Positions 6,856-44,371 of a stretch of DNA of 64,000 bases are shown here, in pieces; position 1 is the stretch's first letter, and the number at the start of each line of letters is the position of its first letter. This stretch comes from Minisyncoccota bacterium (GTDB lineage: Bacteria; Patescibacteriota; Minisyncoccia; Phycocordibacterales; VMEP01): positions 234,101 through 298,100 of the forward strand of contig JBAZUR010000001.1 in assembly GCA_041661305.1 (NCBI GenBank), given 5' to 3'. The notes under the pieces were generated by a model. It was not told where the DNA came from. It saw only the letters and a program-made list of their open reading frames with translations, and made no database searches. A program made the translations under genes and the position numbers.

Positions 6856-8226
6856 ATGGCACAACTAAAAGGAAGTTCTGTTCGTGTTCCCCCACAAAAT
6901 ATTGACTCCGAGAGAGCTCTTCTTGGTGCAATAATGGTTCGATCAGATGCAATCAACGAGATTGTTGATTCTATAGAACCGGAATCTTTTTACGCTGAAA
7001 AACACCGCATAATTTACAATGCAATTCGAGAACTTTTTGCCAGAAATGAACCAATCGACGTAATTACTGTTTCTTCCAGACTAAACGACAAGAATGACCT
7101 AGAACGTATTGGTGGTCGTGCATACCTTATTGAATTAATTAATACCGTCCCTTCAACGTCAAACGTTTTACACTATGCCAATCTTGTCGACAAGACGAGT
7201 ATCTTGCGCAGACTAATCGACGCCGCAGATCATATTTCTGATTTGGGCTTTACTGAATCAAAAGAACTTGATCAAGTTTTAGACGAAGCAGAGAAAAAAA
7301 TATTCGGCATCACCAATTCCCCAAAGGTTCACAAATTCGTTAATATCAAAGACACTTTGACTGAGGCGTGGGAAAGACTGGATCATCTAAATAAGTCTGG
7401 CGACGAAATTCGCGGTGTCCCAACTGGATTTCCAGACCTTGATGCAAAAACTGCTGGTTTCCAAAAGTCTGACCTAATCATTCTCGCGGCTCGCCCATCA
7501 ATGGGTAAAACTGCTTTAGCTCTCGATATCGCAAGACTCGCCTCTACTCGTCACAATATCCCGGTTGGAATTTTTTCTCTTGAAATGAGCGCACATCAAC
7601 TCACCGACCGTATGCTTGCCGCCGAATCCCGCGTTGACGCATGGAAACTACGCACCGGCAAAATTAGCGCCGATGAAGATTTTTCTCGTTTACGCGACGC
7701 AATGAGTGTTCTTTCAAAAGCCCCTATCTATATCGACGACCAAGCCGGTAACTCCATTCTTAAAATGCGTTCTGTTGCACGTAGATTAAAAAGCGAACAT
7801 GGTCTCGGCCTTATCATTGTCGACTACCTCCAACTCATGACCACCTCAAAAAATTACGATTCTATGGTCAACCAAGTGACTGAGATCTCTCGCTCCCTAA
7901 AGAGCCTCGCTCGCGAGCTAGATATTCCAGTCCTCGCACTTTCTCAGCTCTCACGTGCCGTTGAATCACGCGGCGGACGCCCTCGCCTTTCCGACCTCCG
8001 TGACTCCGGTTCTATTGAACAGGATGCTGACTTGGTTATGTTTATTCACCGCGAAGACAAGTACAAAGATGATTCCGAGCGACCAAATATTGCTGAAATT
8101 CTTATCGAAAAACATCGAAATGGTCCAACAGGTAAAATTGAATTGTATTTCGATGACAAAAAAACAACCTTCCTCCCTGTTGATAAGGGCGACTACGCAA
8201 CACTTAGTAAGGATGATGACTTTTAA
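6856..8226 (+). CDS. dnaB: Replicative DNA helicase DnaB
   Basis: 456 aa. N-terminal ERALLGAIM, Walker A ARPSMGKT, then RecA-like C-domain motifs. No intein. Confidence 0.9.
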   Translation: MAQLKGSSVRVPPQNIDSERALLGAIMVRSDAINEIVDSIEPESFYAEKHRIIYNAIRELFARNEPIDVITVSSRLNDKNDLERIGGRAYLIELINTVPSTSNVLHYANLVDKTSILRRLIDAADHISDLGFTESKELDQVLDEAEKKIFGITNSPKVHKFVNIKDTLTEAWERLDHLNKSGDEIRGVPTGFPDLDAKTAGFQKSDLIILAARPSMGKTALALDIARLASTRHNIPVGIFSLEMSAHQLTDRMLAAESRVDAWKLRTGKISADEDFSRLRDAMSVLSKAPIYIDDQAGNSILKMRSVARRLKSEHGLGLIIVDYLQLMTTSKNYDSMVNQVTEISRSLKSLARELDIPVLALSQLSRAVESRGGRPRLSDLRDSGSIEQDADLVMFIHREDKYKDDSERPNIAEILIEKHRNGPTGKIELYFDDKKTTFLPVDKGDYATLSKDDDF

Positions 8227-9600: not shown

Positions 9601-10656
9601 CTATTCGTCTTCTCGGTCGGGTCCTTCCAATATTGGAATTTCGAGTCCTGGGCTCATTCCAGTAATACGTAAAACATCCTTGTCTACCTTCTTCAATTCC
9701 CTTCCAGAAGAATTGTAATGATTGGTCACTGTTTTCAATGAATTCCCAAGCTTGCTGTGATATTCTTCGTACCCTTTTAAATGCTTTCCAAGCTCCTCCA
9801 CCCTCCTTACAATATCTTTTGCGGTCTCTTCAATCTGCATTGCTTTAAGCCCCTGAAGGACTGTTTGTAAGTATGCGAGGAATGATGTTGGAGAAACAAT
9901 AATGACGTGATACTTCCCTGCCGCGCGTTGTATCAAATTCTCTTCGTTCTCTTTTATTGAACCAACCTTATTCACCAAAAGATCATAATAAATCGCTTCG
10001 TGTGGGATAAACATAAAAGCGAAGTCCATCGTTCCCTCGTTCGGGCGAATATATTTTGCCGTTTCAGAAATACGTAATTTCAAATCGTTTAAGAACAGCT
10101 TTGCTAGACGCTCACGCTCCGCTGGATTTTTTTCGTCAATAACACGATTATAATTTTCAAGAGAAAACTTCGAGTCAACAGGAATTATTTTATCTTTTAC
10201 AAAAACAACTGCGTCAACAATTTCTCCGTCTCCAAATGCGTACTGCATTTGATAATCATTAGGAGCCATTACGTTCTTGAGTAATGTTTCCAAATAGTAT
10301 TCCCCCAAAACACCTCTTTGTTTTGGATTCTTCAAAATATCCTGCAATCCTTGAAGCTGATCTGTGACGGAAATAACCTGCTTGTTCGTTTCATCAAGAC
10401 GAGTCAACTTCTCGGTAATATCGCGAATTAAACTCTGCGATTCCACAAATTGATGCCTAACAGCTTCCTGCATATCTTTATTAGACGCGCCAAGCTTGTC
10501 ATCCATCGTCTTCGCCAAAGTCGCGAGTTGGTTTTGAATAAGTAAAAGACTATCAGTTTCAACTGCTGGTTTCCCCTGTTTTGCTGTGATTATCCAAACA
10601 ACAAAAGCTCCGATAAAAACACCAATGACTACAAAAATAATAGTTCCAACTTCCAT
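9601..10656 (-). CDS. rmuC: DNA recombination protein RmuC
   Basis: 351 aa. N-terminal TM helix, long coiled coil, and a conserved C-terminal RmuC nuclease-like region (DFAFMFIPHEAIYYDL). Confidence 0.8.
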   Translation of the reverse strand: MEVGTIIFVVIGVFIGAFVVWIITAKQGKPAVETDSLLLIQNQLATLAKTMDDKLGASNKDMQEAVRHQFVESQSLIRDITEKLTRLDETNKQVISVTDQLQGLQDILKNPKQRGVLGEYYLETLLKNVMAPNDYQMQYAFGDGEIVDAVVFVKDKIIPVDSKFSLENYNRVIDEKNPAERERLAKLFLNDLKLRISETAKYIRPNEGTMDFAFMFIPHEAIYYDLLVNKVGSIKENEENLIQRAAGKYHVIIVSPTSFLAYLQTVLQGLKAMQIEETAKDIVRRVEELGKHLKGYEEYHSKLGNSLKTVTNHYNSSGRELKKVDKDVLRITGMSPGLEIPILEGPDREDE

Positions 10657-10666
10657 GAGAAATATT

Positions 10667-11452
10667 TTACCACAACGAAGCTGTTCCCCCTCCTTTTTTC
10701 TTTGGCATCACTTCGGAAACGGCTTCACGATACAAGCAATAATCACAATCTTCAGATTCTTTTGGTGGTTCATCAAGAAGTAAACATTTCTTCGCCCCAA
10801 TTAGAGCTTCCTCAATCCACTCATCCGAACCTTTGTAAGGAATGACTTTCACATTAAATTCAAGCTTGGCGTCAAAAGCTTCTTTATCTGAGATGCCGTT
10901 GCAGTAGACGAAATACCCCACGTTTGAAACAATATGATCATTTTGGCGTAGAAGCCACTGATACACCTCCATTTGTCGCTTATATCCATCTTGCCATTCA
11001 GCATCAAGAGACACTTCCCCTTCTTTACTTGTCGCTTTGTAGTCAACAACCATTATCTCGCCGGACGGCGCTTCCCAAATATCATCCACCGCACCAGTCA
11101 CGACGAAATTTGTTTTCTTGTGTAAATATCGCACCCCGACAAAGTTGTTTCGCCAATCCTCTAAATTATCGTGCTTGAAAGGGACAGCGTCGATTTTGTA
11201 ATTTGTCATCAAAGGATGAGCTATTCCTTTGGCGCGATAAATATCAAACTCTTTTTTAAGAAGCTTATCTACGGCAGAGTTTAGAGAAAAAGGAAAACCT
11301 GGTGGCCTCCCTACCCCGAGTCTTCGGTCTAAATAAAAGCATCTTGGACACTCTAAAAATAAATCAATTTTTGAACGCGAGAGCGCAAATGGTTCGGCGC
11401 TATCAGGACTAAATTTATTCTTGGTTCGGCGCGGATTGTAATATTGGGACAT
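10667..11452 (-). CDS. PD-(D/E)XK nuclease family protein (Cas4-like), second copy
   Basis: 261 aa. LECPRCFYL N-terminal Cys pair, VVDYKATSKEGE (D-x-K core), and C-terminal CDYCLYREAV Cys cluster. Confidence 0.65.
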   Translation of the reverse strand: MSQYYNPRRTKNKFSPDSAEPFALSRSKIDLFLECPRCFYLDRRLGVGRPPGFPFSLNSAVDKLLKKEFDIYRAKGIAHPLMTNYKIDAVPFKHDNLEDWRNNFVGVRYLHKKTNFVVTGAVDDIWEAPSGEIMVVDYKATSKEGEVSLDAEWQDGYKRQMEVYQWLLRQNDHIVSNVGYFVYCNGISDKEAFDAKLEFNVKVIPYKGSDEWIEEALIGAKKCLLLDEPPKESEDCDYCLYREAVSEVMPKKKGGGTASLW

Positions 11453-15683: not shown

Positions 15684-17405
15684 CTACCTATCGGGAGGAA
15701 CTTCATAATAACTCAGTAAAAACTTGGTAATATCTATAAATGGGTAGGTTAAGGTATGTGATGCGTACTTCTCCCCTTTCGGAAATTTCGTATAAATAAA
15801 TATCAAAAACTTTGGGTTATACGCCGGGAAATATCCAAAAAACGAATGTAGATACCTATCCTCATAGTAACCTTTGCCGTTCGGGAGTGCAATTTGTGCC
15901 GTACCTGTTTTTGCAGCGATACTATAATGTTGCATTTTTACAGCCCCACCCAAGAGAGCTTTGTCGACAACCTCAACCAGCATTCTAGTTATTTCTTCTG
16001 ATGTCTCTTTTTTAAGAACTTGAGCTCCTTTTGGAGTTTCAATCACCTTGTTTAATCCTCCTTTGTAATCAATTTCGGAAACTAAATGCGGAGTAATAAT
16101 AAAACCCCCATTTCCCAAAACTGCGAGAGCTCGCACCATGCTAATTGGGGTCAGAGCAATTCCTTGCCCATACGAAGCATTCACAAACTCAATATCACGA
16201 TTGGTATTTAGGTTTGAAATAAGATTTCTTCCTTCGTTTGGTAAATCGATTCCCGTTCTCTCTGCTAAGCCAAAAGCTAAGAAATATTTTTTGAAATCTT
16301 CTTTTCCAACCTTTTGCATTGCATAGGCCGCGCCAGTATTGAGTGATTCATCAAGCACATTTTGCATCGTGGTAACACCTCGTCCGCGCTTGTCATAATT
16401 GTAAATCGTGTAGCCATTGAACGTGAGAGAGCCTGTGTCGTTGTATGTTGTTTTGGCTGTGACAACGCCCTTATCAAGAGCTACCGCCATCGTAAGAGGC
16501 TTTACTATCGAACCCATTTCGTAGACGTTTTCCACTAAAGGGTTAGAAAATATTCCCGCATTTTCCACGTCTTGGAATTTATTTAAATCAAAACTAGGGG
16601 TTATAACAATTGCATAGATACTGCCGTCATTTGGATTGATAACAATCGCCCCTGTTTCTTCTGAATCATACTTTTTGTTAATTTCCTTAGCAACTTTTTC
16701 TACATAGCTTTGTACAGAAGGGTCCATTGTTAAAACCAAATCACCTTCTTTGTCTAAAACATCGCTAGACAAATTACTCCTCAAGCTTGAAAAAACTTCT
16801 GCAAAAAAATTAACATAAAGACCATTTTTACCCCGTTCAAGAATGCCGTCATATTGTCGTTCAAGCCCATAGCGACCACCAATAACATCCCCTTTGTAAG
16901 CGGTAAAACCGATTGTCTGAGCTGCCATTTCTCCAGCTGGGTAAAACCTCCACTTTTCTTTATAAGCAGAAACTCCGGGGGCTTTTAGCGCTGTTATTGC
17001 GTCGACACTTTCTCTTGAAACCCTATGTGCTATTTCCTCATACGGGTCTTTTTCTTTTGTCGCCTTTTTAATAAAAGTATCGTGCTCTAGCTCTGGTATA
17101 TATTTTTTTAAATTCAAATATAACTCCTCTGCATTTGTTATTTTTTGAGGATTAACTGCAACGATATACCCAGATTTTAGTCCAGCAGCAGAAATTAATT
17201 TTCCATCAATCTCCTTAAAAAAAATCGAGCCACGATCAAAAATCGAGCCACGTGGTGTTGCATATTGGCGGTCTGCTATCTCGCTATAATAAGAACCGTT
17301 AACAACCTGAACAAAGAAAAGCCTGAGGATGATGAATCCCACGGCAAAGACTAAAAGGGATGAAATTAACCTAATTCTACTAGTGTGATTAATATGATGA
17401 GCCAT
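15684..17405 (-). CDS. ftsI: Peptidoglycan D,D-transpeptidase FtsI (PBP3)
   Basis: 573 aa. N-terminal TM, SIVKP (SxxK), SxN and KTGTA motifs. dcw cluster context. Confidence 0.85.
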   Translation of the reverse strand: MAHHINHTSRIRLISSLLVFAVGFIILRLFFVQVVNGSYYSEIADRQYATPRGSIFDRGSIFFKEIDGKLISAAGLKSGYIVAVNPQKITNAEELYLNLKKYIPELEHDTFIKKATKEKDPYEEIAHRVSRESVDAITALKAPGVSAYKEKWRFYPAGEMAAQTIGFTAYKGDVIGGRYGLERQYDGILERGKNGLYVNFFAEVFSSLRSNLSSDVLDKEGDLVLTMDPSVQSYVEKVAKEINKKYDSEETGAIVINPNDGSIYAIVITPSFDLNKFQDVENAGIFSNPLVENVYEMGSIVKPLTMAVALDKGVVTAKTTYNDTGSLTFNGYTIYNYDKRGRGVTTMQNVLDESLNTGAAYAMQKVGKEDFKKYFLAFGLAERTGIDLPNEGRNLISNLNTNRDIEFVNASYGQGIALTPISMVRALAVLGNGGFIITPHLVSEIDYKGGLNKVIETPKGAQVLKKETSEEITRMLVEVVDKALLGGAVKMQHYSIAAKTGTAQIALPNGKGYYEDRYLHSFFGYFPAYNPKFLIFIYTKFPKGEKYASHTLTYPFIDITKFLLSYYEVPPDR

Positions 17406-23389: not shown

Positions 23390-25075
23390 CTATTTAAAAT
23401 ACTCCGGAGTATTAACTGTCATCCACTCAAGAACCTGACGCATAACATAAAGCCCTCCGATTGTATTTTCATGAGGCCCTCTCTCCATCACCACAACAAA
23501 AGCATAGCGTGGATTTTCGTATGGGAAAAATCCAGTAATCCAAGAGTTAACAAACTGTTTCTGTGCGCCGAGCTCTGCAGTACCGGTCTTTGCCCCAACA
23601 GAAACACCACCCATCTGAAGACCTTTTGCGGTACCCTCATCAACAGCCAACTTCATCCCCTCTCGTATAATCCTAAAATTATCAGCGGAAATAGAAACAA
23701 CTTTCGTTGGAAGATTCTGTTCTCCTGTTGTTATATGTGGGGTATAAAGTTTCCCCCCGTTTGCAACTGCAGCTATAGCGCGCACTAATTGAAGTGGCGA
23801 AACCTGAGAACCATATTGCCCAATCGAAGTATGATACGTGTCGCCTAAAAGCCATTTTGCACCATCGAAATTTTTTTCTTTCCACTCTGGGCTAGGAATG
23901 GTTCCTGCAACCTCTGTCGCAAAGTTAATACCAATTTTCTCGCCAAAGCCAAAAGCTCGCATTATGTTTCCAATCTCCACAACACCCAATCCTTTTTGGT
24001 CCGCATATCCACCGCCGATAGCATAAAAATAAACGTCACTCGAGACAGCGAGGGCTCGCCTTACATCTGTCCATCCATTTGCCCTCCAGTCCTTAAAAAT
24101 AGATGGTTTGTCTGGAAAATACGGATTTGGGATAGAGATGGAGCCAGAAGAATAAATCTGCTTGTTTGGGTCAATTATCTTTTTTTCTAGAGCACCTGCA
24201 GCAAGAAACGGTTTTACGGTTGACCCCGGAGTATACAACCCCGCTGTCACGCGGTTTAGAAATGGTTTATTTTTATTTGAAAGAAGCGCATTTATGATGC
24301 GAGTCTCATCTCCGTTTGAAAGTATTTGGGAGTTATATTCTGGATAACTAGTAAGTGCGAGTATCTCTCCATTATTAACATCTATGATAACCCCCGCCCC
24401 GCCCGTAAAACCAACCTGATTTGAAAGAGCCTCCATACTCTCGTAAAGCTTCGCAGAAACACGTGCGTCAACAGAAAGCGTCACGTTTCCTCCATCAACA
24501 GGAAGCCTCTGTGACACTTCTGATTTTAATTTTCCCGTCACATCTGACTCAACCAATCTGACCCCATTTTCGCCACGCAACATTTCATCAAATTCTCTTT
24601 CTGCACCCTGCTGGCCGGTTATTTCTGTTTGCCAAAAGTTACCACTGGAATCTAGTTTGGGATGACTTACGTAACCAACAAGATGAGCAAGACCGGGCGC
24701 AGTAGAATAGCTACGTTTTGGAAACAAATCATTTTCCCCAATCGTATTCCAAGCCAATTCAGTTTTATTTCGATCATAAATAACCCCCCTCACTGAAAAA
24801 ATCGGGATGTGTTTGAGGTGATTGCGCTCACTTGTTCGAGCGTATTCTTCCCCGAGAGCAACTTGGAACCACCAAACACGACCAACGAAAATCAAACCAA
24901 CCAACGCAAAAAACCCTCCAATCAAAAAAATACTCCCCCTAGAAATTGGCTTTTCAATTCTTCCTTCCATGTGATGAGTATCAAACCCGGGACGGTTCGC
25001 AGAATCTAGAAAAATCTCATCGGGGTCGAAGTTTTTTGAGATTATTGAATTTCTTTTATTTCTTCTAAATATCAT
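23390..25075 (-). CDS. mrdA: Peptidoglycan D,D-transpeptidase MrdA (PBP2)
   Basis: 561 aa. STVKPF (SxxK), SSD, KTGTAE. Lies downstream of mreBCD. Confidence 0.85.
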   Translation of the reverse strand: MIFRRNKRNSIISKNFDPDEIFLDSANRPGFDTHHMEGRIEKPISRGSIFLIGGFFALVGLIFVGRVWWFQVALGEEYARTSERNHLKHIPIFSVRGVIYDRNKTELAWNTIGENDLFPKRSYSTAPGLAHLVGYVSHPKLDSSGNFWQTEITGQQGAEREFDEMLRGENGVRLVESDVTGKLKSEVSQRLPVDGGNVTLSVDARVSAKLYESMEALSNQVGFTGGAGVIIDVNNGEILALTSYPEYNSQILSNGDETRIINALLSNKNKPFLNRVTAGLYTPGSTVKPFLAAGALEKKIIDPNKQIYSSGSISIPNPYFPDKPSIFKDWRANGWTDVRRALAVSSDVYFYAIGGGYADQKGLGVVEIGNIMRAFGFGEKIGINFATEVAGTIPSPEWKEKNFDGAKWLLGDTYHTSIGQYGSQVSPLQLVRAIAAVANGGKLYTPHITTGEQNLPTKVVSISADNFRIIREGMKLAVDEGTAKGLQMGGVSVGAKTGTAELGAQKQFVNSWITGFFPYENPRYAFVVVMERGPHENTIGGLYVMRQVLEWMTVNTPEYFK

Positions 25076-25377: not shown

Positions 25378-26169
25378 TCAATTGATTAGTACCTCAACAA
25401 GTTTTAATTCCTGCATATTAAACGGGGTCTTCAGCAAGATAACCTGAAAAGGGCTTCGTGGATCATTCACAACTGCACCAACCGTAGCAATCAAAAATGG
25501 GTTGAGTCCTAAAGAAACAACTTGTGCATCAACAGGAACATTAACATCCCTCGGAAGAGTAGCTTCAAAATTGCCGTTTCCTAAACCACGTAAAGAGACG
25601 CTTATATTGCCTTCAGATATTAGCCCTGCAGTTATCTTTCCTGGTGAAGAAAACATTTCAACTTTGGAAGTGGCGTCACCAACATTAAAAACTTCGCCAA
25701 CAACCGTACCTCCATATGTCAAAACCTGAGCTCCATTAACTATTCCACTATCAACCCCAACATCAAGGACCATGGTGTCATACGGAGAACGATTTGGTTT
25801 TGCAATTATTGCAGCGAGTACTGATCTTTTTTCAGATTTTCTCCCAAGAATATCCTTGAGTTCTGTGTTTTCCTGTGCCAATCTATCTCGCTCAAGAGAA
25901 AGAAGAGCAAAGCCAACATGTTCTGCTTTTAGGCGTGTATTTTCTTGAGAAAGTGAATTCTTAAACTGTATTGCTGACCAAAAACCAGAAAAGAAACTAG
26001 CAACACCGTCCTTTCCTTCAGAAACCAAAGCCAAAGAATTTTGAGTGCTATTTCCAAGCTGTGCAACAAACCCTTTCGCATAAACACCAGACACCACAAT
26101 GAGAGTGAGGGCAATCACAGGAACAAATACTTTAAAATAATTTTTCTTTTTATCTCGGTGGTAAATCAT
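25378..26169 (-). CDS. mreC: Rod shape-determining protein MreC
   Basis: N-terminal TM, coiled coil, and a C-terminal beta domain. Start placed at the internal ATG to avoid a long overlap with mreB. Confidence 0.8.
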   Translation of the reverse strand: MIYHRDKKKNYFKVFVPVIALTLIVVSGVYAKGFVAQLGNSTQNSLALVSEGKDGVASFFSGFWSAIQFKNSLSQENTRLKAEHVGFALLSLERDRLAQENTELKDILGRKSEKRSVLAAIIAKPNRSPYDTMVLDVGVDSGIVNGAQVLTYGGTVVGEVFNVGDATSKVEMFSSPGKITAGLISEGNISVSLRGLGNGNFEATLPRDVNVPVDAQVVSLGLNPFLIATVGAVVNDPRSPFQVILLKTPFNMQELKLVEVLIN

Positions 26170-27205
26170 CTTGTTTTTCAATAAGAATATCCTGATGGAA
26201 AACAAGGTCTTCCAAAATAATTCCAGTTCCTCTCGCTACAGCCGAAAGAGGATCGTCAGAAATATAAACTGGAATCTTCAAAACGCTATTGAGGTATGGG
26301 GCAAGTCCTTGAATAAGAGCTCCTCCTCCAACCAAGACGATACCACGATTCATAATATCGGATGTAACTTCGGGTGGTGTTCGTTCAAGCACCTCTTTAA
26401 CTGAATCCATCAAATTACCAATGGATGCGGAAATCGCTTCTCTAATGTCAGCGTCGGTGACTATAACTTCGCGAGGTAATCCTGTTATCAAGTCTCGTCC
26501 TTTTATTGATGACTCAATTGTCTCTCCTGTATCGAAAACAGAACCAATTGCAATCTTTACGCCTTCAGCTGTTTTCTCCCCTATCAATATTTTAAACTCA
26601 TCACGCAAATACGAAATAATATCTTCATTCAATCTATCTCCGGCAATTTTCAGATTTTTCGAAGCAACAATACCACCAAGAGAAATGACGGCAATGTCTG
26701 TTGTTCCACCACCAATATCAATAATCATTGAACCAACAGGATCTTTAACAGGAAGACGAATTCCAATCGCTGCAGCCATTGGTTCCTCAACAATGTGCAC
26801 TTCGCGAGCGCCAGCGTTCCTGGTTGCATCATAAACCGCGCGAATCTCCACGTTGGTAATACCGGAAGGCACACCCACAACAACGCGAGGGCGAATTGGT
26901 TTTTTTGCAATACGGTCAGCTTTGTTGATTAGATAAGCAATCATCTCCTCTGTCACTTCAAAGTCAGATATAACTCCATCAACCAATGGACGAATGGCCT
27001 TGATATGCCCTGGCGTACGTCCCAACATTTGCTTTGCTTCCATACCGACAGCAACAACTTGTCCCGTTTTTTGATTAACAGCGACAACAGACGGTTCGTT
27101 GATAACAATGCCGTGCCCTTTCAGATAAACAAGCGTATTTGCAGTACCAAGATCAATACCGATATCGTTTGAGAAAACTGAGTAAATTTTGTCGAATGGT
27201 TTCAT
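26150..27205 (-). CDS. mreB: Rod shape-determining protein MreB
   Basis: 351 aa actin-like ATPase (IGIDLGTANTLVY, DIGGGTTD). Confidence 0.9.
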   Translation of the reverse strand: MKPFDKIYSVFSNDIGIDLGTANTLVYLKGHGIVINEPSVVAVNQKTGQVVAVGMEAKQMLGRTPGHIKAIRPLVDGVISDFEVTEEMIAYLINKADRIAKKPIRPRVVVGVPSGITNVEIRAVYDATRNAGAREVHIVEEPMAAAIGIRLPVKDPVGSMIIDIGGGTTDIAVISLGGIVASKNLKIAGDRLNEDIISYLRDEFKILIGEKTAEGVKIAIGSVFDTGETIESSIKGRDLITGLPREVIVTDADIREAISASIGNLMDSVKEVLERTPPEVTSDIMNRGIVLVGGGALIQGLAPYLNSVLKIPVYISDDPLSAVARGTGIILEDLVFHQDILIEKQDDLPPR

Positions 27206-31512: not shown

Positions 31513-32526
31513 CTATCGCTTCGCGATTATCGACTTTTTGTAAACATCGAGGTGCTCAAGTGCGATTCCAGTCCCCTTCGCCACACAATACAATGGGTCC
31601 TCGGCCATAGTCGCCTTAACTCCAGTGCGACGAAAAACAAGTTCTGGAAAATTACGAAGCATAGAGGTTCCTCCGGTCATGATTATTCCATTATCTATAA
31701 TATCCGCCGAGAGCTCTGGTGGAGTATCCTGAAGAACGTCTTTAATCGCTTTTATCATCTGTCTTAGTTCTTTATCTATCGCCTTAACGATTTCATTTGT
31801 TGAAATTTGTGCAGTACGTGGAAGTCCTGCGATGAAATCGCGACCTTTGATGGTCATCGTCAATTCTTCGTCCATTGGCGTTGCCGAACCAATCTGAATT
31901 TTTATATCTTCTGCTGTCTTGTCTCCGATAGCCAAGTTAAAAGTTTTTTTAATGTAATCCGTAATTGCAGCATCAATACGATTGCCTGCGCACTTCACAG
32001 AGTTTGATGCAACAATCCCACCGAGCGAAATAACAGCAACGTCTGTCGTACCACCACCAATATCAACAACCATATGCCCTCGAGGTTCATGAATTGGAAT
32101 ACCTGCGCCGATTGCCGCCAAAATTGGTTCCTTCACAACATAGGCGTTTTTTGCCCCAGCTTTAATTGCAGCCTCCACGACAGCACGACGTTCTGTTGAC
32201 GTTACCCCCGCAGGAACAGAAACCATCACCTCTGGTTTAAAAATACTAAACTTCCCCATCGCCTTACCAATATAATAACGAAGCATCGCTTCGGTCACGC
32301 GATAATCAGCAATCACACCATCTCTCATTGGTCGATAAGCAATAATGCTATCTGGAGTTTTACCAATCATATCTTTTGCTTCAATACCAACAGCCAAAAT
32401 TTTGTTTTCTTGTTCAGAAACAGCAACAACTGAAGGTTCGTTTAAAACAACTCCCTTTCCAGGAAGGTACACGAGGGTATTTGCTGTCCCTAAATCTATT
32501 CCAAGTTTTTTTGTAAAAAATGACAT
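31513..32526 (-). CDS. MreB-like actin homolog (second copy)
   Basis: 337 aa. LGIDLGTANTLVY, DIGGGTTD. Stand-alone, not next to mreCD. Confidence 0.85.
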   Translation of the reverse strand: MSFFTKKLGIDLGTANTLVYLPGKGVVLNEPSVVAVSEQENKILAVGIEAKDMIGKTPDSIIAYRPMRDGVIADYRVTEAMLRYYIGKAMGKFSIFKPEVMVSVPAGVTSTERRAVVEAAIKAGAKNAYVVKEPILAAIGAGIPIHEPRGHMVVDIGGGTTDVAVISLGGIVASNSVKCAGNRIDAAITDYIKKTFNLAIGDKTAEDIKIQIGSATPMDEELTMTIKGRDFIAGLPRTAQISTNEIVKAIDKELRQMIKAIKDVLQDTPPELSADIIDNGIIMTGGTSMLRNFPELVFRRTGVKATMAEDPLYCVAKGTGIALEHLDVYKKSIIAKR

Positions 32527-32538
32527 TTATTTCGTGTG

Positions 32539-33864
32539 TTAAGCCACCACCGAGTCCGCGACCGGCATCCTTTCAATTGAAACGCCGATTGCTCTTAGGC
32601 GCTCCTCAACTCTCTCATACCCTCTATCAATGTTATAGACATTATGGATAACAGATTCACCTTTGGCAACAATACCCGCAATAACAAAGGCTAGCCCCGC
32701 TCGAAGGTCTGGGCTTTCAAGCTCCTTAGAATTAAGGGGTGTTGGTCCAGAAATTTTTACACGATGAGGATCAAACATTGTTATTTCTGCCCCCATTCTG
32801 TTTAACCATTCAACATAATTTAAACGTCCCTCAAAAATTGTCTCGAAAACCAAACTGTCACCTTTTGCTTGTGTAAGAAAAACCACCATTGGCGCTTGGA
32901 TGTCAGTTGGGAATCCTGGGTATTCGTGTGTCTTTATATCAACAGCGTTGAGTTGAACTTTTTTCTTTCCAGAAACTTTTACCGTAATAGTATTTGTGCC
33001 GACCTTAATCGGAACTCCAGAATACGTAAGTACTTCAATCAAAGATTCTAAATGTTTTGGTTCGCAGTCTGTGATAGTGACATCCTCTCCGAGTAGCGCC
33101 GCGATAACAAGAAAACTACCAGCTTCAATTCTGTCAGGTGTCGTAATGTAAGCCTTACCTTTACTCTTTAATTTTGAAGTTCCAGTAATTGTGATTGTTG
33201 ATGTTCCTGCGCCAATAATCTTTGCCCCACAACTATTCAAATATTCCGCTAATGTCTCAATTTCAGGCTCAAGAGCAGCATTTTTAATGACTGTTTTACC
33301 CTCGGCTAAAACCGCTGCCATCATAAACGTTTCTGTTCCTGTAACGCTTTGGTTCCTGAAAAATATTTCTGCCCCCCGAAGTTTTCCGCCACGAGCAGAG
33401 ATGACGTAATAAGCTTTCCCTTTTTCCCCAGACACAGAAATCTTTGCCCCCATTTTTTTGAAACCTTCCAAGAATAAATCAATCGGTCGCGCACCAATAA
33501 CACATCCACCTGGATGTGGAAAATGGACTGTCCCAAAACGTGCAAGTAGTGGACCAGTAAGGACAATAGAAGCACGCAAGCGCTTGGCGATCTCAACTGA
33601 CATTTTCCCGTTACGCATTCCTGTAGTAGAAATTTCCAAGACCCCTTTATTCTTATACTGCACATCAGCTCCTAAGTCGGTGAGTAAATCCCCCATTCGA
33701 TTAACATCTTCAATCTCAGGAACATTCTTCATTGTGAGCTTGTCGTCAAAAAGAATAGAAGCAGCCATAACCTTTAGGGCTGCATTTTTTGCGCCACGTA
33801 CGGCAATTTTTCCACGCAATTTTCGCATGCCTGCCAACCCTTTGATTAGAAAAATCTCTTTCAT
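32539..33864 (-). CDS. murA: UDP-N-acetylglucosamine 1-carboxyvinyltransferase
   Basis: 441 aa EPSP-synthase fold with the catalytic Cys region (GGCVIGARPID). Confidence 0.9.
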   Translation of the reverse strand: MKEIFLIKGLAGMRKLRGKIAVRGAKNAALKVMAASILFDDKLTMKNVPEIEDVNRMGDLLTDLGADVQYKNKGVLEISTTGMRNGKMSVEIAKRLRASIVLTGPLLARFGTVHFPHPGGCVIGARPIDLFLEGFKKMGAKISVSGEKGKAYYVISARGGKLRGAEIFFRNQSVTGTETFMMAAVLAEGKTVIKNAALEPEIETLAEYLNSCGAKIIGAGTSTITITGTSKLKSKGKAYITTPDRIEAGSFLVIAALLGEDVTITDCEPKHLESLIEVLTYSGVPIKVGTNTITVKVSGKKKVQLNAVDIKTHEYPGFPTDIQAPMVVFLTQAKGDSLVFETIFEGRLNYVEWLNRMGAEITMFDPHRVKISGPTPLNSKELESPDLRAGLAFVIAGIVAKGESVIHNVYNIDRGYERVEERLRAIGVSIERMPVADSVVA

Positions 33865-33948
33865 TGCACCATCTTACTTGGTTTTTAGTGCATCTCCAAA
33901 TTCTACTTAAAAACTAGTTTGTGGAGCATTTTTGCTATACTGGAATTT

Positions 33949-35865
33949 ATGCAGATTAGCCTCGTGACCGTTATGCCAATCGGAAAAAGCGTCTTCAAAG
34001 AACGCTTGTCTTATTTTTCGGTTGAAAACTTACCACTTGGCTCGGTTGTTAATGTCCCCCTCCGAGGACGAAGTATTCCTGCACTCGTTGTTTTGGTTGA
34101 AAGTGCAGAGGATAGTAAGGCAAAAATACGAGCTGCTTCCTTTGCAATAAAGAAAATAGAAAACGGAAAACCACGTCAACTTTTCTCGTCTGCCTTTATC
34201 GCCGCGGCCGACGAAGCGGCAGAATATTTCGCGGCACCAGCTGGCGCAATCATTGAACTATTTTCACCAAAAGCAATTCTTGAAGAAAGCGCCACCGCCG
34301 GAGAAGTAATTTCTGTTCCAAGAAAAGAACGCCCAATAACAGCAGAACAATTTGTTTTTCAGTCTGACGAGGAAGAACGACTCGTTACTTATCGTAGTTT
34401 ATTTAGAGAAGAGTTCGCCCGAGGGTTTTCCCTTTTTCTTTGCCTTCCAACCATAGAAGACGTAGAACGTTATACAACTCTCTTAGCCAAAGGCATTGAA
34501 GGATATGTCGTCACCCTACACAGCGAACTCTCAAAAAAAGAAATGGTTAGTCGTTGGCAAAGAATTGCTTCCGATACTCATCCACTTTTAATAATTGGAA
34601 CTAGTACATTCCTATCAGTTCCTCGAAATGACATTTCGACGTTTATCGTCGAGAAAGAATCGAGCAATGCTTATCGTCGTATGGGGCGTCCACACGTTGA
34701 CGCCCGCACGTTTGCCGAATTTTTGGCTAAAAAAAGTGGGGCTAGACTTATTTTTGGAGACACAATTCTTCGCGCCGAAACCCTCTACCGCCATGATGAG
34801 CACGAGTTCCCAGAATGGCGCCCCGTAAAATTACGCCTTCGCGCGCAAGCTGAAACAGTTGTTATTGATATGAAAAAAGAGCTTGAAAAGGCGTCTCCCA
34901 AAAAAACATACCCAATAATAAGTGAGCGCCTTGTTAACGAAATAAGGGAAACGATAGAACGTAACGGAAATATTTTCGTTTTTGCTGGACGACGTGGACT
35001 TGCTCCAGTAACCGTCTGCGAAGACTGCGGGGAAACTCTTATGTGTGGGCACTGCACAAGTCCTATGGTTCTTCACGAAGAAGGATCTCTCCGTTTTTAT
35101 CTTTGTCATCAATGTGGAAAGAAAATAATTTTAGGAAAACAAACCGAAGACTTGTGTCGCAATTGCGGAAGCTGGCGAATGAAACCACTTGGTACCGGAA
35201 GTGGTCGTATTGAAAGCGAACTTGAAAAAAAGTTTCCACGCTTAAACATTGTTCGCCTCGATAGCGATGTCGCTAAAACCCGAAAATCAATCACTAAGGC
35301 TATTAAAGAATTCTACGGCTCGAAAGCAACTCTGCTTATCGGAACAGAACTTGCCCTTCCGTACCTCACAGAAGAAATTGACTGTGTTGCGGCCGTCGGT
35401 ATTGATTCTCTTTTTACAATTCCAGATTTTCGAATAGAAGAACGGGTATTCCAAACACTCTCATACTTAAAAACACGAGCACGAAGAATATTTATTATTC
35501 AAACAAGGGACAAAGACAGAGAACTATTAAGCGATGTTTCAAAAGGAGACCTAGTGGGCTTCTACAGACGTGAACTTGCTGAAAGAAAACAATTTGGCTA
35601 TCCGCCTTTCGCTAAGCTTCTCAAAATCACCTACCGTGGAAAACGCGACGAGGCCGAGCGCGAAATGGCGCGACTTCACAACTATCTTCGAGTTGATCAA
35701 TTCCCAATTTTCCCCGCTTTTATACCAGAAGTTAAAAAGGAGTACCGCCTACATGGCCTACTTTCTTTCGAACCAAAACAGTGGCCCCGCAAAGATCTTA
35801 TCGAAAAGCTAAAGAGTCTCCCACTTCAATTTGATATTGAAGTCGATCCTGAAACAATTTTATAA
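33949..35865 (+). CDS. priA: Primosomal protein N' (PriA)-like protein with degenerate Walker A and DExH motifs
   Basis: PriA architecture, including the C-terminal Cys4 zinc ribbons (CEDCGETLMCGHC, CHQCGKK, CRNCGS) and C-terminal domain. Where GVTGSGKTEVY is expected it reads QSDEEERLVTY, and where DEEHD is expected it reads VEKESSNAY. Confidence 0.8.
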   Translation: MQISLVTVMPIGKSVFKERLSYFSVENLPLGSVVNVPLRGRSIPALVVLVESAEDSKAKIRAASFAIKKIENGKPRQLFSSAFIAAADEAAEYFAAPAGAIIELFSPKAILEESATAGEVISVPRKERPITAEQFVFQSDEEERLVTYRSLFREEFARGFSLFLCLPTIEDVERYTTLLAKGIEGYVVTLHSELSKKEMVSRWQRIASDTHPLLIIGTSTFLSVPRNDISTFIVEKESSNAYRRMGRPHVDARTFAEFLAKKSGARLIFGDTILRAETLYRHDEHEFPEWRPVKLRLRAQAETVVIDMKKELEKASPKKTYPIISERLVNEIRETIERNGNIFVFAGRRGLAPVTVCEDCGETLMCGHCTSPMVLHEEGSLRFYLCHQCGKKIILGKQTEDLCRNCGSWRMKPLGTGSGRIESELEKKFPRLNIVRLDSDVAKTRKSITKAIKEFYGSKATLLIGTELALPYLTEEIDCVAAVGIDSLFTIPDFRIEERVFQTLSYLKTRARRIFIIQTRDKDRELLSDVSKGDLVGFYRRELAERKQFGYPPFAKLLKITYRGKRDEAEREMARLHNYLRVDQFPIFPAFIPEVKKEYRLHGLLSFEPKQWPRKDLIEKLKSLPLQFDIEVDPETIL

Positions 35866-35867
35866 AA

Positions 35868-35900
35868 AAATAAAGGGCCCATCTTGCGACGAGCCCTTTT
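35868..35900. terminator. Bidirectional terminator between priA-like (+) and the 35916 gene (-)
   Basis: AAAAAAATAAAGGGCCCATCTTGCGACGAGCCCTTTTG. Confidence 0.65.
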
Positions 35901-35915
35901 GAGCACCACGTGTTG

Positions 35916-36404
35916 TCAAGCGGTACAGATAACACTCATTTCCACCATCCGCCCAAGCGGAATGTCGTCCGATGAACACTCGGAAACGGGGTCAATGATT
36001 TCGACGAAACCTCGGCCGTCGTCAGGGTCACCTTCGTAGCCGGTAATTTTGAACGACACCTGAACTCCGTTGTTCAAAGTGAATTCACAACTGTCGTTGA
36101 GTTCGCCGCGGATAAAGCTCGGAATCTTCAGCGCCATCTGTAAACCGCGAATTTCCTTTTCCGCGATAATCTTTGCCGTGTCGTTGGTGAACCGGAGGTA
36201 CCCCAACTCGTCGCCCCTACAGTGAAACGCGAGTTGTTGTATTCCGTTCCCAATGGGCGCGTCGTCGGGAAAACTTTCCCAATGTGACACCTCTCGTGCT
36301 CCGATATCGCACAGATCCAAAAAGGTCTCGGTCAAGAGGGCGTGTTGGGTCAGGAAAACGTAGAAAAACAGGTGGTTGTTTCGCGCAAGCGCGTTTTTGT
36401 CCAT
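35916..36404 (-). CDS. Hypothetical protein (162 aa) in a GC-rich island
   Basis: AAGGAG Shine-Dalgarno 7 nt upstream. About 50% GC. Cys-containing acidic protein with no recognised domain. Bounded by the bidirectional terminator. Confidence 0.5.
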   Translation of the reverse strand: MDKNALARNNHLFFYVFLTQHALLTETFLDLCDIGAREVSHWESFPDDAPIGNGIQQLAFHCRGDELGYLRFTNDTAKIIAEKEIRGLQMALKIPSFIRGELNDSCEFTLNNGVQVSFKITGYEGDPDDGRGFVEIIDPVSECSSDDIPLGRMVEMSVICTA

Positions 36405-36551
36405 GTGTACACTCCTTATATAGTGGACGGTTTTAAACTACAGGAGAACTTTAGGCTGTTGCCACGCTACCACCCATAATCAAATACGTCAACGATACGC
36501 AATTTACCAGCACTACGTAGTGTTTTCAAAAATCATACGTATAATTAACAA

Positions 36552-37112
36552 ATGCCTAAAAAGATAGTCCAAAACGGTGAGCCGGTCCTTCGTTCACTGG
36601 CTAAGGTCGTTCCACCCGCCGAAATTGACTCTAAAAAAATAAAGCGGGTAATAGCAGACATGAAAGTGGCTTTATCTAAGGAGCCTGACGGCGTTGCTAT
36701 AGCTGCCCCTCAAATTGGAGAATCCTTTCGTATTTTCGTCGTTGCTGGGCGCGTTTTTGCTCTTCGCACCAACGAAGAAGACCCCGAGAAAATTATGGAT
36801 CAAAAACTTTACCCCGATAAAGCCTTCATCAACCCACAAATAATTAAGCGTTCAAAAAAAGAGCGTGAGCTTCTAGAGGGATGTCTCTCTGTGCGTCACA
36901 TCTACGGCAAAATAAAGCGTAGCGAAAAAGCGACAGTGAAGGCACAGGATGAAGATGGAAAAGTTTTTACTCAAACAGGTAGTGGACTACTCGCCGAAAT
37001 ATTCCAACACGAAATTGACCATCTCGACGGAATTCTTTTTATAGACAAAGCAAAAGAACTAAGAGAGCTACATCCCGAAGACGAGGAGGGCTACAATGAA
37101 AACAATGAATAA
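36552..37112 (+). CDS. def: Peptide deformylase
   Basis: 186 aa. GVAIAAPQIG, EGCLS, HEIDHLDG motifs. Confidence 0.85.
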   Translation: MPKKIVQNGEPVLRSLAKVVPPAEIDSKKIKRVIADMKVALSKEPDGVAIAAPQIGESFRIFVVAGRVFALRTNEEDPEKIMDQKLYPDKAFINPQIIKRSKKERELLEGCLSVRHIYGKIKRSEKATVKAQDEDGKVFTQTGSGLLAEIFQHEIDHLDGILFIDKAKELRELHPEDEEGYNENNE

Positions 37113-37965
37113 TATTCCGTTTGTATTTTTTGGAACACCAGAATTTGCGGTGTCCATTTTAGAAGAACTCAAAAACGCCAAAATTGTGCCTTCTCTTATT
37201 GTCACGGCCCCCGACAAACCAAAAGGCCGTGGACTTATCCTCACCCCACCACCTGTAAAGATTTGGGCACAAGCGCACAACATCCCAGCTGTACAACCAG
37301 CAAAACTCGACAATGACTTTACTAATAAACTAAAAAATAGTTCCTACAATCTGTTCGTCGTTGCCGCTTATGGGAAAATAATTCCTAAAACAATTTTGGA
37401 TATTCCAACTAATGGAACACTCAACGTCCATCCATCACTCCTACCAAAATATAGAGGTGCCTCCCCTATTCAATCCCAAATACTTGCTGATGAAAAAGAA
37501 GTTGGGATCACAATCATGCTCATCGACGAAGAAATGGATCACGGCCCAATATTAGATATTAAAAAAATAGGAACTGAAGAAAGCACAACAGCTCCAGAAC
37601 TAGAAAATCTTTTAGCTCACGAGGGAGGGAAACTTCTTTCTGTTGTTATTCCAAAATGGATTGCAGGGGAAATAAAACCAAAGGAACAAAACCACAACGA
37701 AGCAACCTTCACAAAAAAAATAACAAAAGAAAATGGTTTAATTGTTTTGTCTGACGACCAACACAAAAATTATTTAAAATACAGAGCTTTAACACCGTGG
37801 CCGGGCGCTTATTTTTTTGCAACAAAAAATGGAAAAAAATTAAGGGTATCTATTAAAAAAGCTGAACTAATTGAAGGTAAACTAGTAGTAAAACAAGTTG
37901 TTCCAGAAGGTGGAAAAGTAATGAACTTTGATGATTTCTTGCGCGGAGACGTTGTGATAGAATAG
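37096..37965 (+). CDS. fmt: Methionyl-tRNA formyltransferase
   Basis: 289 aa. N-terminal formyltransferase domain (SLLPKYRGASPIQ) and C-terminal domain. Overlaps the def stop, as in def-fmt operons. Confidence 0.9.
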   Translation: MKTMNNIPFVFFGTPEFAVSILEELKNAKIVPSLIVTAPDKPKGRGLILTPPPVKIWAQAHNIPAVQPAKLDNDFTNKLKNSSYNLFVVAAYGKIIPKTILDIPTNGTLNVHPSLLPKYRGASPIQSQILADEKEVGITIMLIDEEMDHGPILDIKKIGTEESTTAPELENLLAHEGGKLLSVVIPKWIAGEIKPKEQNHNEATFTKKITKENGLIVLSDDQHKNYLKYRALTPWPGAYFFATKNGKKLRVSIKKAELIEGKLVVKQVVPEGGKVMNFDDFLRGDVVIE

Positions 37966-41984: not shown

Positions 41985-42485
41985 ATGCGTTTTACACAAG
42001 GGTGTACGCGCTTGGTCATCCTCACGGAGACCATCGCGATCAAAATTGCTTTGCCATTTCGGCCATTTATTCCTTTTATAATCGTCATCCAGGCAATTTT
42101 AAGAGGTGACCTCAAGAGAAAACTGGAAAAACATAACGGAAACCTGCTTAAGGTACTGGTTCGCTGTATGACCATTGCTGGTATTGACGCAAATCGTCGT
42201 GAGATGCGGATTTCCACAATGTACCCAGAATACCCAATTGCTCGCGTACTTCGCTCTTATCTTTGGGGTTTTGTAATCGTTATGACCAAAGGAGAGCAGA
42301 TTGCGGAATCTCTTGAGCCTTGGGTTATCAACCAACTGTCGCTTCCCGACCATCTCCAGAAATCTGATCTGTTCAAGAATGACAACACTTGTTGTATCGA
42401 CGGGAGGTTCCACTTCGTTGATTACGGCGATCCATCCGCTGACGAAGTCCTACCTTTACTCTTCGGCACCCGGAGCACCAACTAG
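41985..42485 (+). CDS. Hypothetical protein (166 aa) in a GC-rich segment
   Basis: Higher-GC ORF followed by the hairpin AGCCATTTCGCGCAAGCAAGTGGCT plus a T8 run at about 42486-42520. No recognisable domain. Confidence 0.4.
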   Translation: MRFTQGCTRLVILTETIAIKIALPFRPFIPFIIVIQAILRGDLKRKLEKHNGNLLKVLVRCMTIAGIDANRREMRISTMYPEYPIARVLRSYLWGFVIVMTKGEQIAESLEPWVINQLSLPDHLQKSDLFKNDNTCCIDGRFHFVDYGDPSADEVLPLLFGTRSTN

Positions 42486-42567
42486 AGCCATTTCGCGCAA
42501 GCAAGTGGCTCTGTTTTTTTTCATTTTTATCCGCACTAAAACTGACTATGATATAGTTATCAAAATT

Positions 42568-43218
42568 ATGATTAAAAAACTAGAAAAAGACTTGAGTGTT
42601 AAACAACTGGAGGCAGAGATAGCCAGACTGAAAAATCTTGTCTATCGTGACGAGCTTACCGGAATGTTGAATAGACGTGGTTTCAACGAAGAAGCTGGTA
42701 AGGTTTTCAAATACATGTATTCAAAACATGGACTAAGTCTAAATCGACAAGGTGACACACTCCCCTTCAGTATTGTTTTTATAGACATAGATGATTTTAA
42801 GAAAGTAAACGATAAGTATGGGCACGATGAGGGAGACAAGGTTCTAAAACACACAGCAAAGATAATGGGTCGTGTTTTGAGAGAAAATGACATCTATGCA
42901 CGATGGGGTGGCGAAGAATTTGTTGTTGCATTACCTCAAGCAAACAAAAAAACAGCAGTTAAGGTTGCCGAAAAATTATGTAATGCGTTTGCAGATTCAA
43001 AAATAAAACTCGGCGGGAAGCCTGTACAAGTAACAATGAGTGTTGGCATTGTTATGCATAGCAACGAAATAAACCTTCACCAAATGATAGAGAAAGCAGA
43101 CCAGGCTATGTACAAAGCTAAAAAAAGAGGAAAAAATCAAGTTGTTACTTTCACCCACGGAGAGGAGGAAGGTAATTATTTCTTAAAATTATTACACCTA
43201 GTTAAGGGTCGAGGTTAA
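42568..43218 (+). CDS. Stand-alone GGDEF-domain diguanylate cyclase with an N-terminal coiled-coil
   Basis: Starts at the internal ATG (MIKKLEKDLSVKQLEAEIARLK...). Contains RDELTGMLNRRGF, DIDDFKKVNDKYGH, the intact GGEEF active-site motif, and KADQAMYKAKKRGKNQV. Confidence 0.8.
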   Translation: MIKKLEKDLSVKQLEAEIARLKNLVYRDELTGMLNRRGFNEEAGKVFKYMYSKHGLSLNRQGDTLPFSIVFIDIDDFKKVNDKYGHDEGDKVLKHTAKIMGRVLRENDIYARWGGEEFVVALPQANKKTAVKVAEKLCNAFADSKIKLGGKPVQVTMSVGIVMHSNEINLHQMIEKADQAMYKAKKRGKNQVVTFTHGEEEGNYFLKLLHLVKGRG

Positions 43219-43960: not shown

Positions 43961-44371
43961 TTATTTGTGGCACTTTATACACTTACACCCTCTAGGTTTT
44001 ATGTATGCATCAAAATACTCAGTGTCATAATCATAGTTTAATTCTTCTCCAGCCTTAATATTCTTTTTAGCCAAAATATACGCACCACCTCTCCATATTT
44101 CTAATTCACAATTTGGACGACAAGAATGATTTATATAACGAGCTGTATTTGTTTTCGCGCTACCGTCAATAGTTATTTTAGAATTTATCTCAAGTAAATA
44201 TTTTCCCCGACTATAGATCTTTTCTCTTTCGGAAATCTCTCGGCCAACATATTGAATAATACACGCTCCTTTTTTTATCGGATCAAGAGTAAAAAGCCCA
44301 ATTCCCGTCTTTGAGCGCTTGGTTATGAGATTATATTCACCAGGTGTAAATTTTCCTTTTCTCACAGGCAT
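43961..44371 (-). CDS. SET-domain protein (putative protein lysine methyltransferase)
   Basis: 136 aa. NHSCRPNC, EELNYDY, and a post-SET Cys cluster CKCIKC. Confidence 0.7.
   Translation of the reverse strand: MPVRKGKFTPGEYNLITKRSKTGIGLFTLDPIKKGACIIQYVGREISEREKIYSRGKYLLEINSKITIDGSAKTNTARYINHSCRPNCELEIWRGGAYILAKKNIKAGEELNYDYDTEYFDAYIKPRGCKCIKCHK

Follow-up and report, generated by a model that had tools for sequence, protein, structure and literature searches.

What can a PriA protein still do once the parts that handle ATP have been replaced? This question is raised by a priA gene in a 64,000-nucleotide stretch of a Minisyncoccota bacterium genome (assembly GCA_041661305.1, contig JBAZUR010000001.1, positions 234,101 to 298,100), which we call the window. 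An earlier note, made from the sequence alone, had described the gene product as a PriA homolog that has lost both the Walker A P-loop and the DExH box, and had proposed a scaffolding role in replication restart. Our analysis points to a similar answer, which we hold at a probability of about 0.72: the protein would be a motor-less PriA ortholog, a pseudohelicase that serves as an ATP-independent scaffold for fork recognition and helicase loading. This reading draws on the sequence, on a structural model and on analogy with PriA proteins from other bacteria.

In its genome, which is of the Paceibacteria type (Parcubacteria, Patescibacteria), the gene is the resident PriA ortholog. Its product scored 241.8 bits against the NCBIfam model TIGR00595 (priA), for which the curated cutoff is 230.35. 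A phmmer search of the PDB sequences returned PriA chains only (4NL4, 6DGD, 6DCR, 8FAK and 9ZBU) at E values of about 1e-36, the Klebsiella pneumoniae and Escherichia coli proteins being matched at E = 2e-36. Identity to E. coli PriA is about 20-26%. Among the Pfam families, PriA_3primeBD (PF17764) was found above threshold (23.8 bits, cutoff 22.7) and PriA_C under its cutoff (16.5 bits). No Pfam match to DEAD, ResIII or Helicase_C was obtained in this PriA, and the canonical PriAs that we retrieved carry all three. Together with the fold match and the conserved locus described below, these results bear out the proposed homology to PriA along the length of the protein. The open reading frame is intact, as had been stated, and runs unbroken to position 35865, but the length of 648 residues given for it counts from an alternative upstream TTG codon at 33919. 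Since all homologs begin at the ATG position (MxIxxVIPI...), the protein has 638 residues.

The elements by which a superfamily 2 (SF2) helicase handles ATP are replaced or deleted in this protein. Motifs were paired in a MAFFT alignment with E. coli PriA (sequence from NC_000913.3). At motif I the protein reads FQSDEEERLVTY where E. coli PriA reads AGVTGSGKTEVY, with QSDEEERL opposite GVTGSGKT and a clade pattern of Q-x-(D/E)3-R. At motif II, FIVEKESSNAYR is paired with VIDEEHDSSYK, and EKES stands opposite DEEH. An HMMER alignment to the K. pneumoniae PriA 4NL4 begins just past the P-loop and pairs FIVEKESSNAYRR with IVIDEEHDSSYKQ. Scanning with regular expressions revealed neither GxxxxGK[ST] nor DExH/D anywhere in this protein, and a Walker A or DExH motif at the motif I or II position was found in 0/121 sequences. 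The loss of Walker A is thereby confirmed by the MAFFT alignment and the scan, with 0/201 relatives having a Walker A motif there, and the loss of the DExH box by both alignments and the scan. A displaced Walker A or DExH motif elsewhere was considered and rejected; the few sporadic matches among homologs fall at unrelated positions.

The loss is wider than first described. Motif III reads FGDTILRAETL against LGSATPALETL in E. coli, GSATP having become GDxxLR in the clade, and motif V reads LIGTELALPYLTE against LIGTQMLAKGHHF, with AL(P/L)YL in place of KGHHF. The aromatic-rich loop, the KGH of motif V, the GRAGR sequence of motif VI, the helix before motif I and the winged-helix domain are likewise lost. 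E. coli residues from about 110 to 221, which comprise the winged-helix domain (about 110-190) and the L-x-x-x-Q helix, are almost without counterpart. By the standard assignment of SF2 motifs, the lost elements serve ATP binding and hydrolysis or its coupling to DNA, and the kept ones contact the nucleic-acid backbone. In the E. coli protein the aromatic-rich loop (K328-Y335) couples DNA binding to ATP hydrolysis, W333 and Y335 being critical (PMC5175346). Because three to four carboxylates replace the phosphate-binding loop and no arginine finger is present, the protein should neither bind nor hydrolyse ATP. The proposal that it cannot handle ATP in the manner of an SF2 helicase is hence strongly supported: the motif I glycines are replaced by Gln, Asp or Glu and the lysine by Arg in 201/201 sequences, DEEH is lost and the arginine finger is deleted.

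Structure prediction revealed a confident PriA fold in which a helix replaces the P-loop. The AlphaFold2 model, made from 121 sequences, reached a predicted local distance difference test score of 91.7 and a predicted template modelling score of 0.91. In a Foldseek search against the PDB the nine best matches were PriA chains, with template modelling (TM) scores of 0.68-0.77 and 8fak_H at the top (E = 2e-40); Mfd and other SF2 helicases matched far lower. An engineered E. coli PriA with its winged-helix domain deleted (6dcr_A) gave TM scores of 0.75/0.75 to the model, and no winged-helix fold element was seen in the query model. The pseudo-site was compared with the corresponding site of a near-canonical relative, P0353, using the DSSP strings of the two models. 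In P0353 a strand (residues 156-159) leads into the P-loop (160-165) and a helix that starts from the Walker Lys166. In the query model a strand (134-138) is followed by one continuous helix (141-157) that absorbs the acidic tract and R144. In the model the former P-loop thus extends helix alpha-1 at its N terminus as an acidic segment whose last residue is the invariant arginine at the Walker lysine position. Residues 113-133 form no helix in the query model, and P0353 has a helix (139-149, LTSEQKEAVEAI) before the motif I strand. By alignment and model, both RecA-like lobes, the 3' end-binding domain, the two-zinc Cys-rich region and the C-terminal domain are predicted to be intact.

The same motor-less state was found in all 201 relatives examined in the alignment, and the loss is lineage-wide. 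At the Walker positions the first glycine (E. coli G224) is Gln in 201/201 sequences and the lysine (K230) is Arg (R144 here) in 201/201, preceded by three residues that are nearly always Asp or Glu. Motif II reads (D/E)(R/K/H)E(S/N)S in these sequences, with R, K or H at the second position of DEEH in 191/201. The pseudo-motifs carry 2.7-3.3 bits per position, compared to a mean of 2.46 for the protein, so the former active site is constrained and not drifting. The closest 120 protein clusters share 37-93% identity and all belong to Patescibacteria (Paceibacterota, Lloyd-, Taylor- and Zambryskibacteria are named). The nearest relative, from Parcubacteria bacterium LiPW_30, is 89% identical, and in a survey with a single genome for each GTDB species, 423 genomes encoded a relative. 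Compared with three relatives of 88-89% identity, the proportion of nonsynonymous differences (pN) is about 0.08 and that of synonymous differences (pS) 0.72-0.74, which is saturated. Since synonymous sites are saturated (dS >1), we used only the contrast of pN with pS and not a ratio of substitution rates (dN/dS). The pN of priA lies below that of murA, def, fmt and holB in the same loci. Judged from these sequences, selection on priA is strongly purifying. The description of the gene as maintained was therefore well founded, given the 423 species genomes, the low pN beside saturated pS and pseudo-motifs conserved above average.

The retained parts are those that would contact DNA and partner proteins. 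In the 3' end pocket, compared here using the E. coli pocket residues given in PMC5778457, Y22 (E. coli Y18) is invariant and lysine at K68/K69 (E. coli K61) is conserved in more than 90% of sequences. The E. coli pocket residue D17 is Ser here. The eight cysteines C357, C360, C366, C369, C386, C389, C403 and C406, arranged in four CxxC pairs, are invariant or more than 90% conserved, which upholds the earlier view that the Cys4 zinc modules are kept. The same holds for the C-terminal domain, retained on the evidence of fold match and conservation with the Pfam PriA_C score under its cutoff. The alignment further shows that the motif Ia proline, the RRG of motif IV, the GT of motif V, PDFRxxE, QTR and YPPF are kept.

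Taken together, a fork-recognition and helicase-loading scaffold is the role that we infer from sequence and analogy. It fits the data since the parts for fork binding and partner docking are kept, ATPase-dead E. coli PriA supports restart, and Deinococcus radiodurans PriA binds forks and DnaB. The E. coli K230R mutant (priA300) is ATPase-dead and differs little from wild type in vivo except where the PriA-PriC pathway is required (PMC5778457), and the ATPase-dead K230A protein is the form used in DnaB reloading assays (PMC10175261). In E. coli PriA, fork binding alone pivots the Cys-rich region, which together with helicase lobe 2 and the C-terminal domain forms a pore for single-stranded DNA (ssDNA); fork binding also exposes the partner-docking surface (PMC10175261). 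The D. radiodurans protein is without ATPase or helicase activity, binds ssDNA and forks at near-normal affinity and interacts with DnaB (PMC4504706). By analogy, the protein of the window would neither bind nor hydrolyse ATP and hence would not translocate or unwind DNA. It would recognise abandoned forks and D-loops via its 3' end pocket and the DNA surfaces of the helicase core and C-terminal domain, and would probably clamp lagging-strand ssDNA as E. coli PriA does. The Cys-rich region could then offer the docking surface that recruits the DnaB-loading machinery. The most likely role would be that of an ATP-independent sensor of forks and D-loops that nucleates DnaB loading. As there is no motor, such a protein should restart only forks that already expose lagging-strand ssDNA, or act via other fork-remodelling helicases.

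Several points weigh against a scaffold of this kind. The absence of ATP binding is something that we infer from motifs and a predicted model, and a second, weak nucleotide site, as yet unmapped, has been proposed in E. coli PriA (PMC5778457). Fork specificity may differ, given the Ser in place of E. coli D17 and the lack of a winged-helix domain. Pfam scans of the 61 open reading frames of the window found DnaB, DnaG, HolB and RecR, and did not find PriB, DnaT, DciA, DnaC, DnaI, DnaD or SSB among them. Finally, there is a small chance that a second, canonical priA lies elsewhere in the genome, the check having covered the window and 10-kb flanks of 80 related loci.

Alternatively, the protein might have kept fork DNA binding without DnaB loading, and act on the nascent 3' end or the lagging template as a fork-protection factor or gatekeeper that regulates access of polymerases and remodelers. 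The DNA-binding elements are indeed the best-retained parts, and no gene for PriB, DnaT, DnaD or a loader is linked to priA. By its title, a study by Manhart and McHenry (2013, cited in PMC10175261) has PriA blocking replicase access before helicase assembly. However, the eight zinc cysteines are invariant or nearly so, and in E. coli the Cys-rich region is the docking surface for primosome partners (PMC10175261). Moreover, the only PriA pseudohelicase studied so far, that of D. radiodurans, interacts with DnaB. We therefore regard a pure gatekeeper as unlikely.

Less probable still is a neo-functionalised paralog that coexists with a canonical, active PriA encoded elsewhere in the same genomes. 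A tblastn search with E. coli PriA and the query, confined to the 64-kb window and to flanks of 10 kb around the 80 loci, yielded no additional PriA-like sequence. The longest contigs that carry a relative reach only about 0.7-1 Mb, and small genomes of this size rarely keep duplicates. Furthermore, the priA-def-fmt position is held in every lineage examined, including the near-canonical P0353, which makes the gene the positional ortholog.

A nucleotide might also still be bound or hydrolysed via non-canonical residues such as R144, R/K236 or R508, in view of the high conservation of the pseudo-site and of the unmapped second nucleotide site proposed for the E. coli protein. We consider this very improbable: the three to four acidic residues in place of the glycine-rich loop would repel phosphates, the loop is modelled as a regular helix, neither the helix before motif I nor the arginine finger is present, and the exchange of lysine for arginine alone abolishes the ATPase of E. 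coli PriA. A decaying gene or annotation artefact, which the loss of the catalytic motifs might suggest, is refuted by the intact reading frame, the occurrence in 423 species, the pN of 0.08 with saturated synonymous sites and the confident fold prediction.

How far does the loss extend, and how often did it occur? A first homolog search had returned in-clade proteins only; canonical PriAs and a Moranbacteria form were reached by searching outwards twice, first from P0110, which diverges most within the clade, and then from P0202. The search from P0110 revealed the same pseudo-form in Nomura-, Vogel- and Kaiserbacteria and further, more divergent pseudo-forms (P0175-P0183). The score then falls sharply, from 234 to 174 bits, and below this drop are canonical PriAs with GSGKT, DEEH and GRAGR. 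The outlier P0202 leads to a second family, found in Moranbacteria, with DTSxxxDPKR at motif I, [LT]EEQDES at motif II and nearly canonical motifs III and V. P0353 in turn has GPASSGKT, DEEQ, GSATP and GRMAR and is matched by the Pfam families DEAD, ResIII and Helicase_C. P0353 (L089, 7001-9004), P0202 (L087, 3754-5733) and P0183 (L085, 6001-7908) share a common wecG-ligT-priA-def-fmt neighbourhood.

A neighbour-joining tree of 55 sequences and 598 columns (100 bootstraps), built without Deinococcus sequences and by a simple method that may suffer from long-branch effects, united the clade of the window and its divergent forms with a bootstrap value of 100, and these with P0183 at 87. The Moranbacteria form grouped with the near-canonical P0353 and P0354 at 100. 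All these PriAs, which resemble those of the candidate phyla radiation (CPR), came together at 79, and a single clade of all pseudo-forms received 0. Because the Moranbacteria form groups with near-canonical proteins, the motor was probably lost at least twice within the CPR-like group; the position of P0353 and P0354 inside this group points to a loss within it. The Moranbacteria form and its near-canonical neighbours suggest a repeated or stepwise loss of the PriA motor. The losses in the CPR-like group would be separate from that in Deinococcus-Thermus.

A further degenerate PriA (P0234, 776 residues, on a 3-kb contig of the European Nucleotide Archive, outside the window) carries the motifs HAPMAHRLA, VDGEED and GLARPA. 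It branches among the canonical PriAs and is long enough for the region between the 3' end-binding domain and the helicase core. Its most abundant residues are Leu, Ala, Arg, Val, Gly and Pro, which points to a high-GC organism. The protein may represent a further independent pseudohelicase lineage. We also observed that, among the three closest relatives, two loci labelled "uncultured Candidatus Saccharibacteria" (L002, L004) share the gene order of the window with a Parcubacteria locus (L003). Such labels, common among the records of metagenome-assembled genomes that carry this type of PriA, look generic or wrong and were treated as unreliable.

The scaffold reading can be combined with these observations into a more far-reaching, and clearly more tentative, proposal. 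Motor loss would be recurrent, having arisen independently at least twice, and near-universal across much of the Paceibacteria-type Patescibacteria. In the clade of the window the pocket would have been rebuilt as a conserved, self-occupied module, giving a constitutively "switched" PriA. The acidic helix cap (D/E-D/E-E), the invariant R144 and R/K236 might imitate bound nucleotide and hold the two RecA lobes in a single conformation. Fork recognition might then be coupled directly to helicase loading without energy input, and restart would take place only on forks with pre-exposed lagging-strand ssDNA, or with a further partner.

Table 1. Positions of the priA gene, its protein segments and relevant neighbouring genes in the window.
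Feature	Position	Strand	Residues	Remarks
priA, predicted pseudohelicase gene	33949..35865	+	638 and stop	ATG at 33949 is the start common to homologs
3' end-binding domain	33949..34278	+	1-110	PF17764 above cutoff, and alignment
Linker	34279..34347	+	111-133	short, poorly conserved; stands in for winged-helix domain and pre-motif-I L-x-x-x-Q helix
Pseudo-motif I, replacing Walker A	34351..34392	+	135-148	FVFQSDEEERLVTY; Q138, R144, Y148 invariant
Pseudo-motif II, replacing DEEH	34639..34677	+	231-243	TFIVEKESSNAYR; E237 in 200/201; position 236 is R/K/H
Remodelled aromatic-rich loop	34687..34707	+	247-253	R-P-H-V-D-A-R; E. coli W333 is invariant P248
Pseudo-motif III, replacing LGSATPALETL	34750..34785	+	268-279	IFGDTILRAETL; D271 invariant
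Motif IV, retained	34975..35004	+	343-352	FVFAGRRGLA; R348, G350 invariant
Cys-rich region	35005..35184	+	353-412	four CxxC pairs, sufficient for two Zn sites
Pseudo-motif V	35329..35370	+	461-474	TLLIGTELALPYLT; GT present, KGHHF gone
PriA-specific PDFRxxE segment	35416..35445	+	490-499	most conserved stretch of the protein
Pseudo-motif VI region	35455..35514	+	503-522	GRAGR arginine finger deleted (5-residue gap); QTR present
C-terminal domain	35515..35862	+	523-638	conserved YPPF; PriA_C under cutoff; fold match and conservation
def and fmt	36552..37965	+		conserved downstream neighbours (priA-def-fmt)
murA	32539..33864	-		conserved upstream neighbour
dnaB	6856..8226	+		canonical replicative helicase, presumed PriA client; about 26 kb from priA

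The gene order (rseP frr holB mreB) murA priA def fmt is shared by most of the 80 related loci (Table 1 gives the positions in the window). def and fmt follow priA in 58-59 of the 80, and many of the others stop at a contig edge. The same order is present in a relative of 28% identity (P0179), and priA-def-fmt also in other divergent relatives. The order priA-def-fmt is widespread in other bacteria as well. In contrast, the dnaB gene, which had been cited as encoded nearby in support of a loading role, is unlinked to priA in relatives, and the argument from its proximity carries no weight because of the distance in the window.

The surroundings of priA show some variation. The spacer between priA and def (35866-36551) measures 686 bp, compared to a median of 46 bp in 59 relatives and 54-56 bp in those of 88-89% identity. 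It contains an open reading frame of 162 residues on the minus strand (orf162, 35916-36404), which matched no family in Pfam or PHROG and is without counterpart in the 80 loci. The extra DNA with orf162 looks like a recent insertion. On the other side, 84 bp separate priA from the divergently transcribed murA, and a TATACT hexamer about 10 nt 5' of the priA ATG (33934-33948), with only a weak GGA between, hints at a very short leader. The orientation of murA varies: it is on the minus strand in the window and in some loci, and on the plus strand in most. In a divergent relative (L082 4408-5907, L083 838-2337) the upstream murA encodes 499 residues, with an N-terminal helix-turn-helix region (HTH_3/HTH_19/HTH_31) fused to the MurA domain of EPSP-synthase fold.

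Elsewhere in the window, two full-length mreB paralogs (26150-27205 and 31513-32526, both on the minus strand), mreC (25378-26205) and two PBP2-type transpeptidases (15684-17405, 23390-25075) make up an elaborate gene set for shape and elongation. A recombination and repair cluster adjoins dnaB (520-1707, 8233-8847, 9601-10656 and 10667-11452) and comprises two PD-(D/E)XK/Cas4-like nucleases, recR and rmuC. A GGDEF diguanylate cyclase (42301-43218, plus strand) and a SET-domain protein (43961-44371, minus strand) are also encoded.

The clade is a second lineage in which the PriA motor is gone, larger and more radical than Deinococcus and spanning hundreds of species-level Patescibacteria genomes. 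It lends natural support to the idea that what is essential and conserved in PriA is its ability to recognise forks and nucleate the primosome, not unwinding. Current understanding is not overturned, because earlier work had established that PriA can fulfil its core function without helicase activity. These proteins, with neither winged-helix domain nor ATPase, are also minimal PriAs of natural origin that could serve in structural and biochemical studies of how DnaB is passed to forks in bacteria without PriB and DnaT. In addition, labels such as "(superfamily II helicase)" or "replication restart helicase PriA" on some clade members are probably wrong as to enzymatic activity. These findings should be useful to researchers of replication restart and to genome annotators. 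A full-text search of the literature found no description of PriA motor loss in Patescibacteria, the CPR or Parcubacteria.

Compared to canonical PriA (TIGR00595; 4NL4, 6DCR, 8FAK), the protein has its 3' end-binding domain, two RecA lobes, embedded two-zinc Cys-rich region and C-terminal domain in the same order, a fold matching at a TM score of 0.75, the PDFRxxE, RRG, QT and PPF/W signatures and the priA-def-fmt position. It differs in lacking the ATPase motifs, the winged-helix domain and the aromatic-rich loop, and in its low identity to the E. coli protein. The E. coli mutants K230R (priA300), K230A and K230D are ATPase-dead, yet support primosome assembly, PriA-PriB restart and DnaB reloading, and K230R has the same exchange of the Walker lysine. 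However, these laboratory mutants carry single point exchanges, keep every other motif, need PriB and DnaT and fail in the PriA-PriC pathway, whereas the PriA described here has an entirely rebuilt ATP site, and the window revealed no PriB, DnaT or PriC. The Moranbacteria-type PriA (P0202 and relatives) is likewise from Patescibacteria, without winged-helix domain and GKT, and encoded upstream of def-fmt, but has its own motif I and II sequences, nearly canonical motifs III and V and a place in the tree beside P0353 and P0354.

The closest precedent is the PriA pseudohelicase of Deinococcus-Thermus (Lopper et al. 2015, PMC4504706). A 2017 review names Deinococcus as the exception to the conserved helicase activity of PriA (PMC5778457), and the N-terminal region is known to vary among PriAs (PMC4504706). 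As here, the Deinococcus-Thermus protein is a full-length ortholog with degenerate Walker A and B motifs and an arginine in place of the Walker lysine, is maintained across its lineage, and has been proposed to act in ATP-independent restart through fork binding and DnaB contact. Its defining sequence features (PMC4504706) are found in the clade of the window, where R144 occupies the K230 position in 201/201 sequences and motif II is degenerate. The precedent, a known PriA-like family that the earlier note had thought might overturn its proposal, does not refute the scaffold reading, but lowers its novelty. Apart from belonging to another phylum, the clade of the window differs from the Deinococcus-Thermus proteins, here compared by their description, in a deeper degeneration: there is no glycine loop, motif III, the aromatic-rich loop, KGH and the arginine finger are gone, the winged-helix domain is absent, and the pseudo-motifs form a conserved signature of their own. 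The concept of a PriA pseudohelicase is already established for Deinococcus-Thermus, and the case of the window is a more extreme and probably independently arisen variant of it, not a new category of system.

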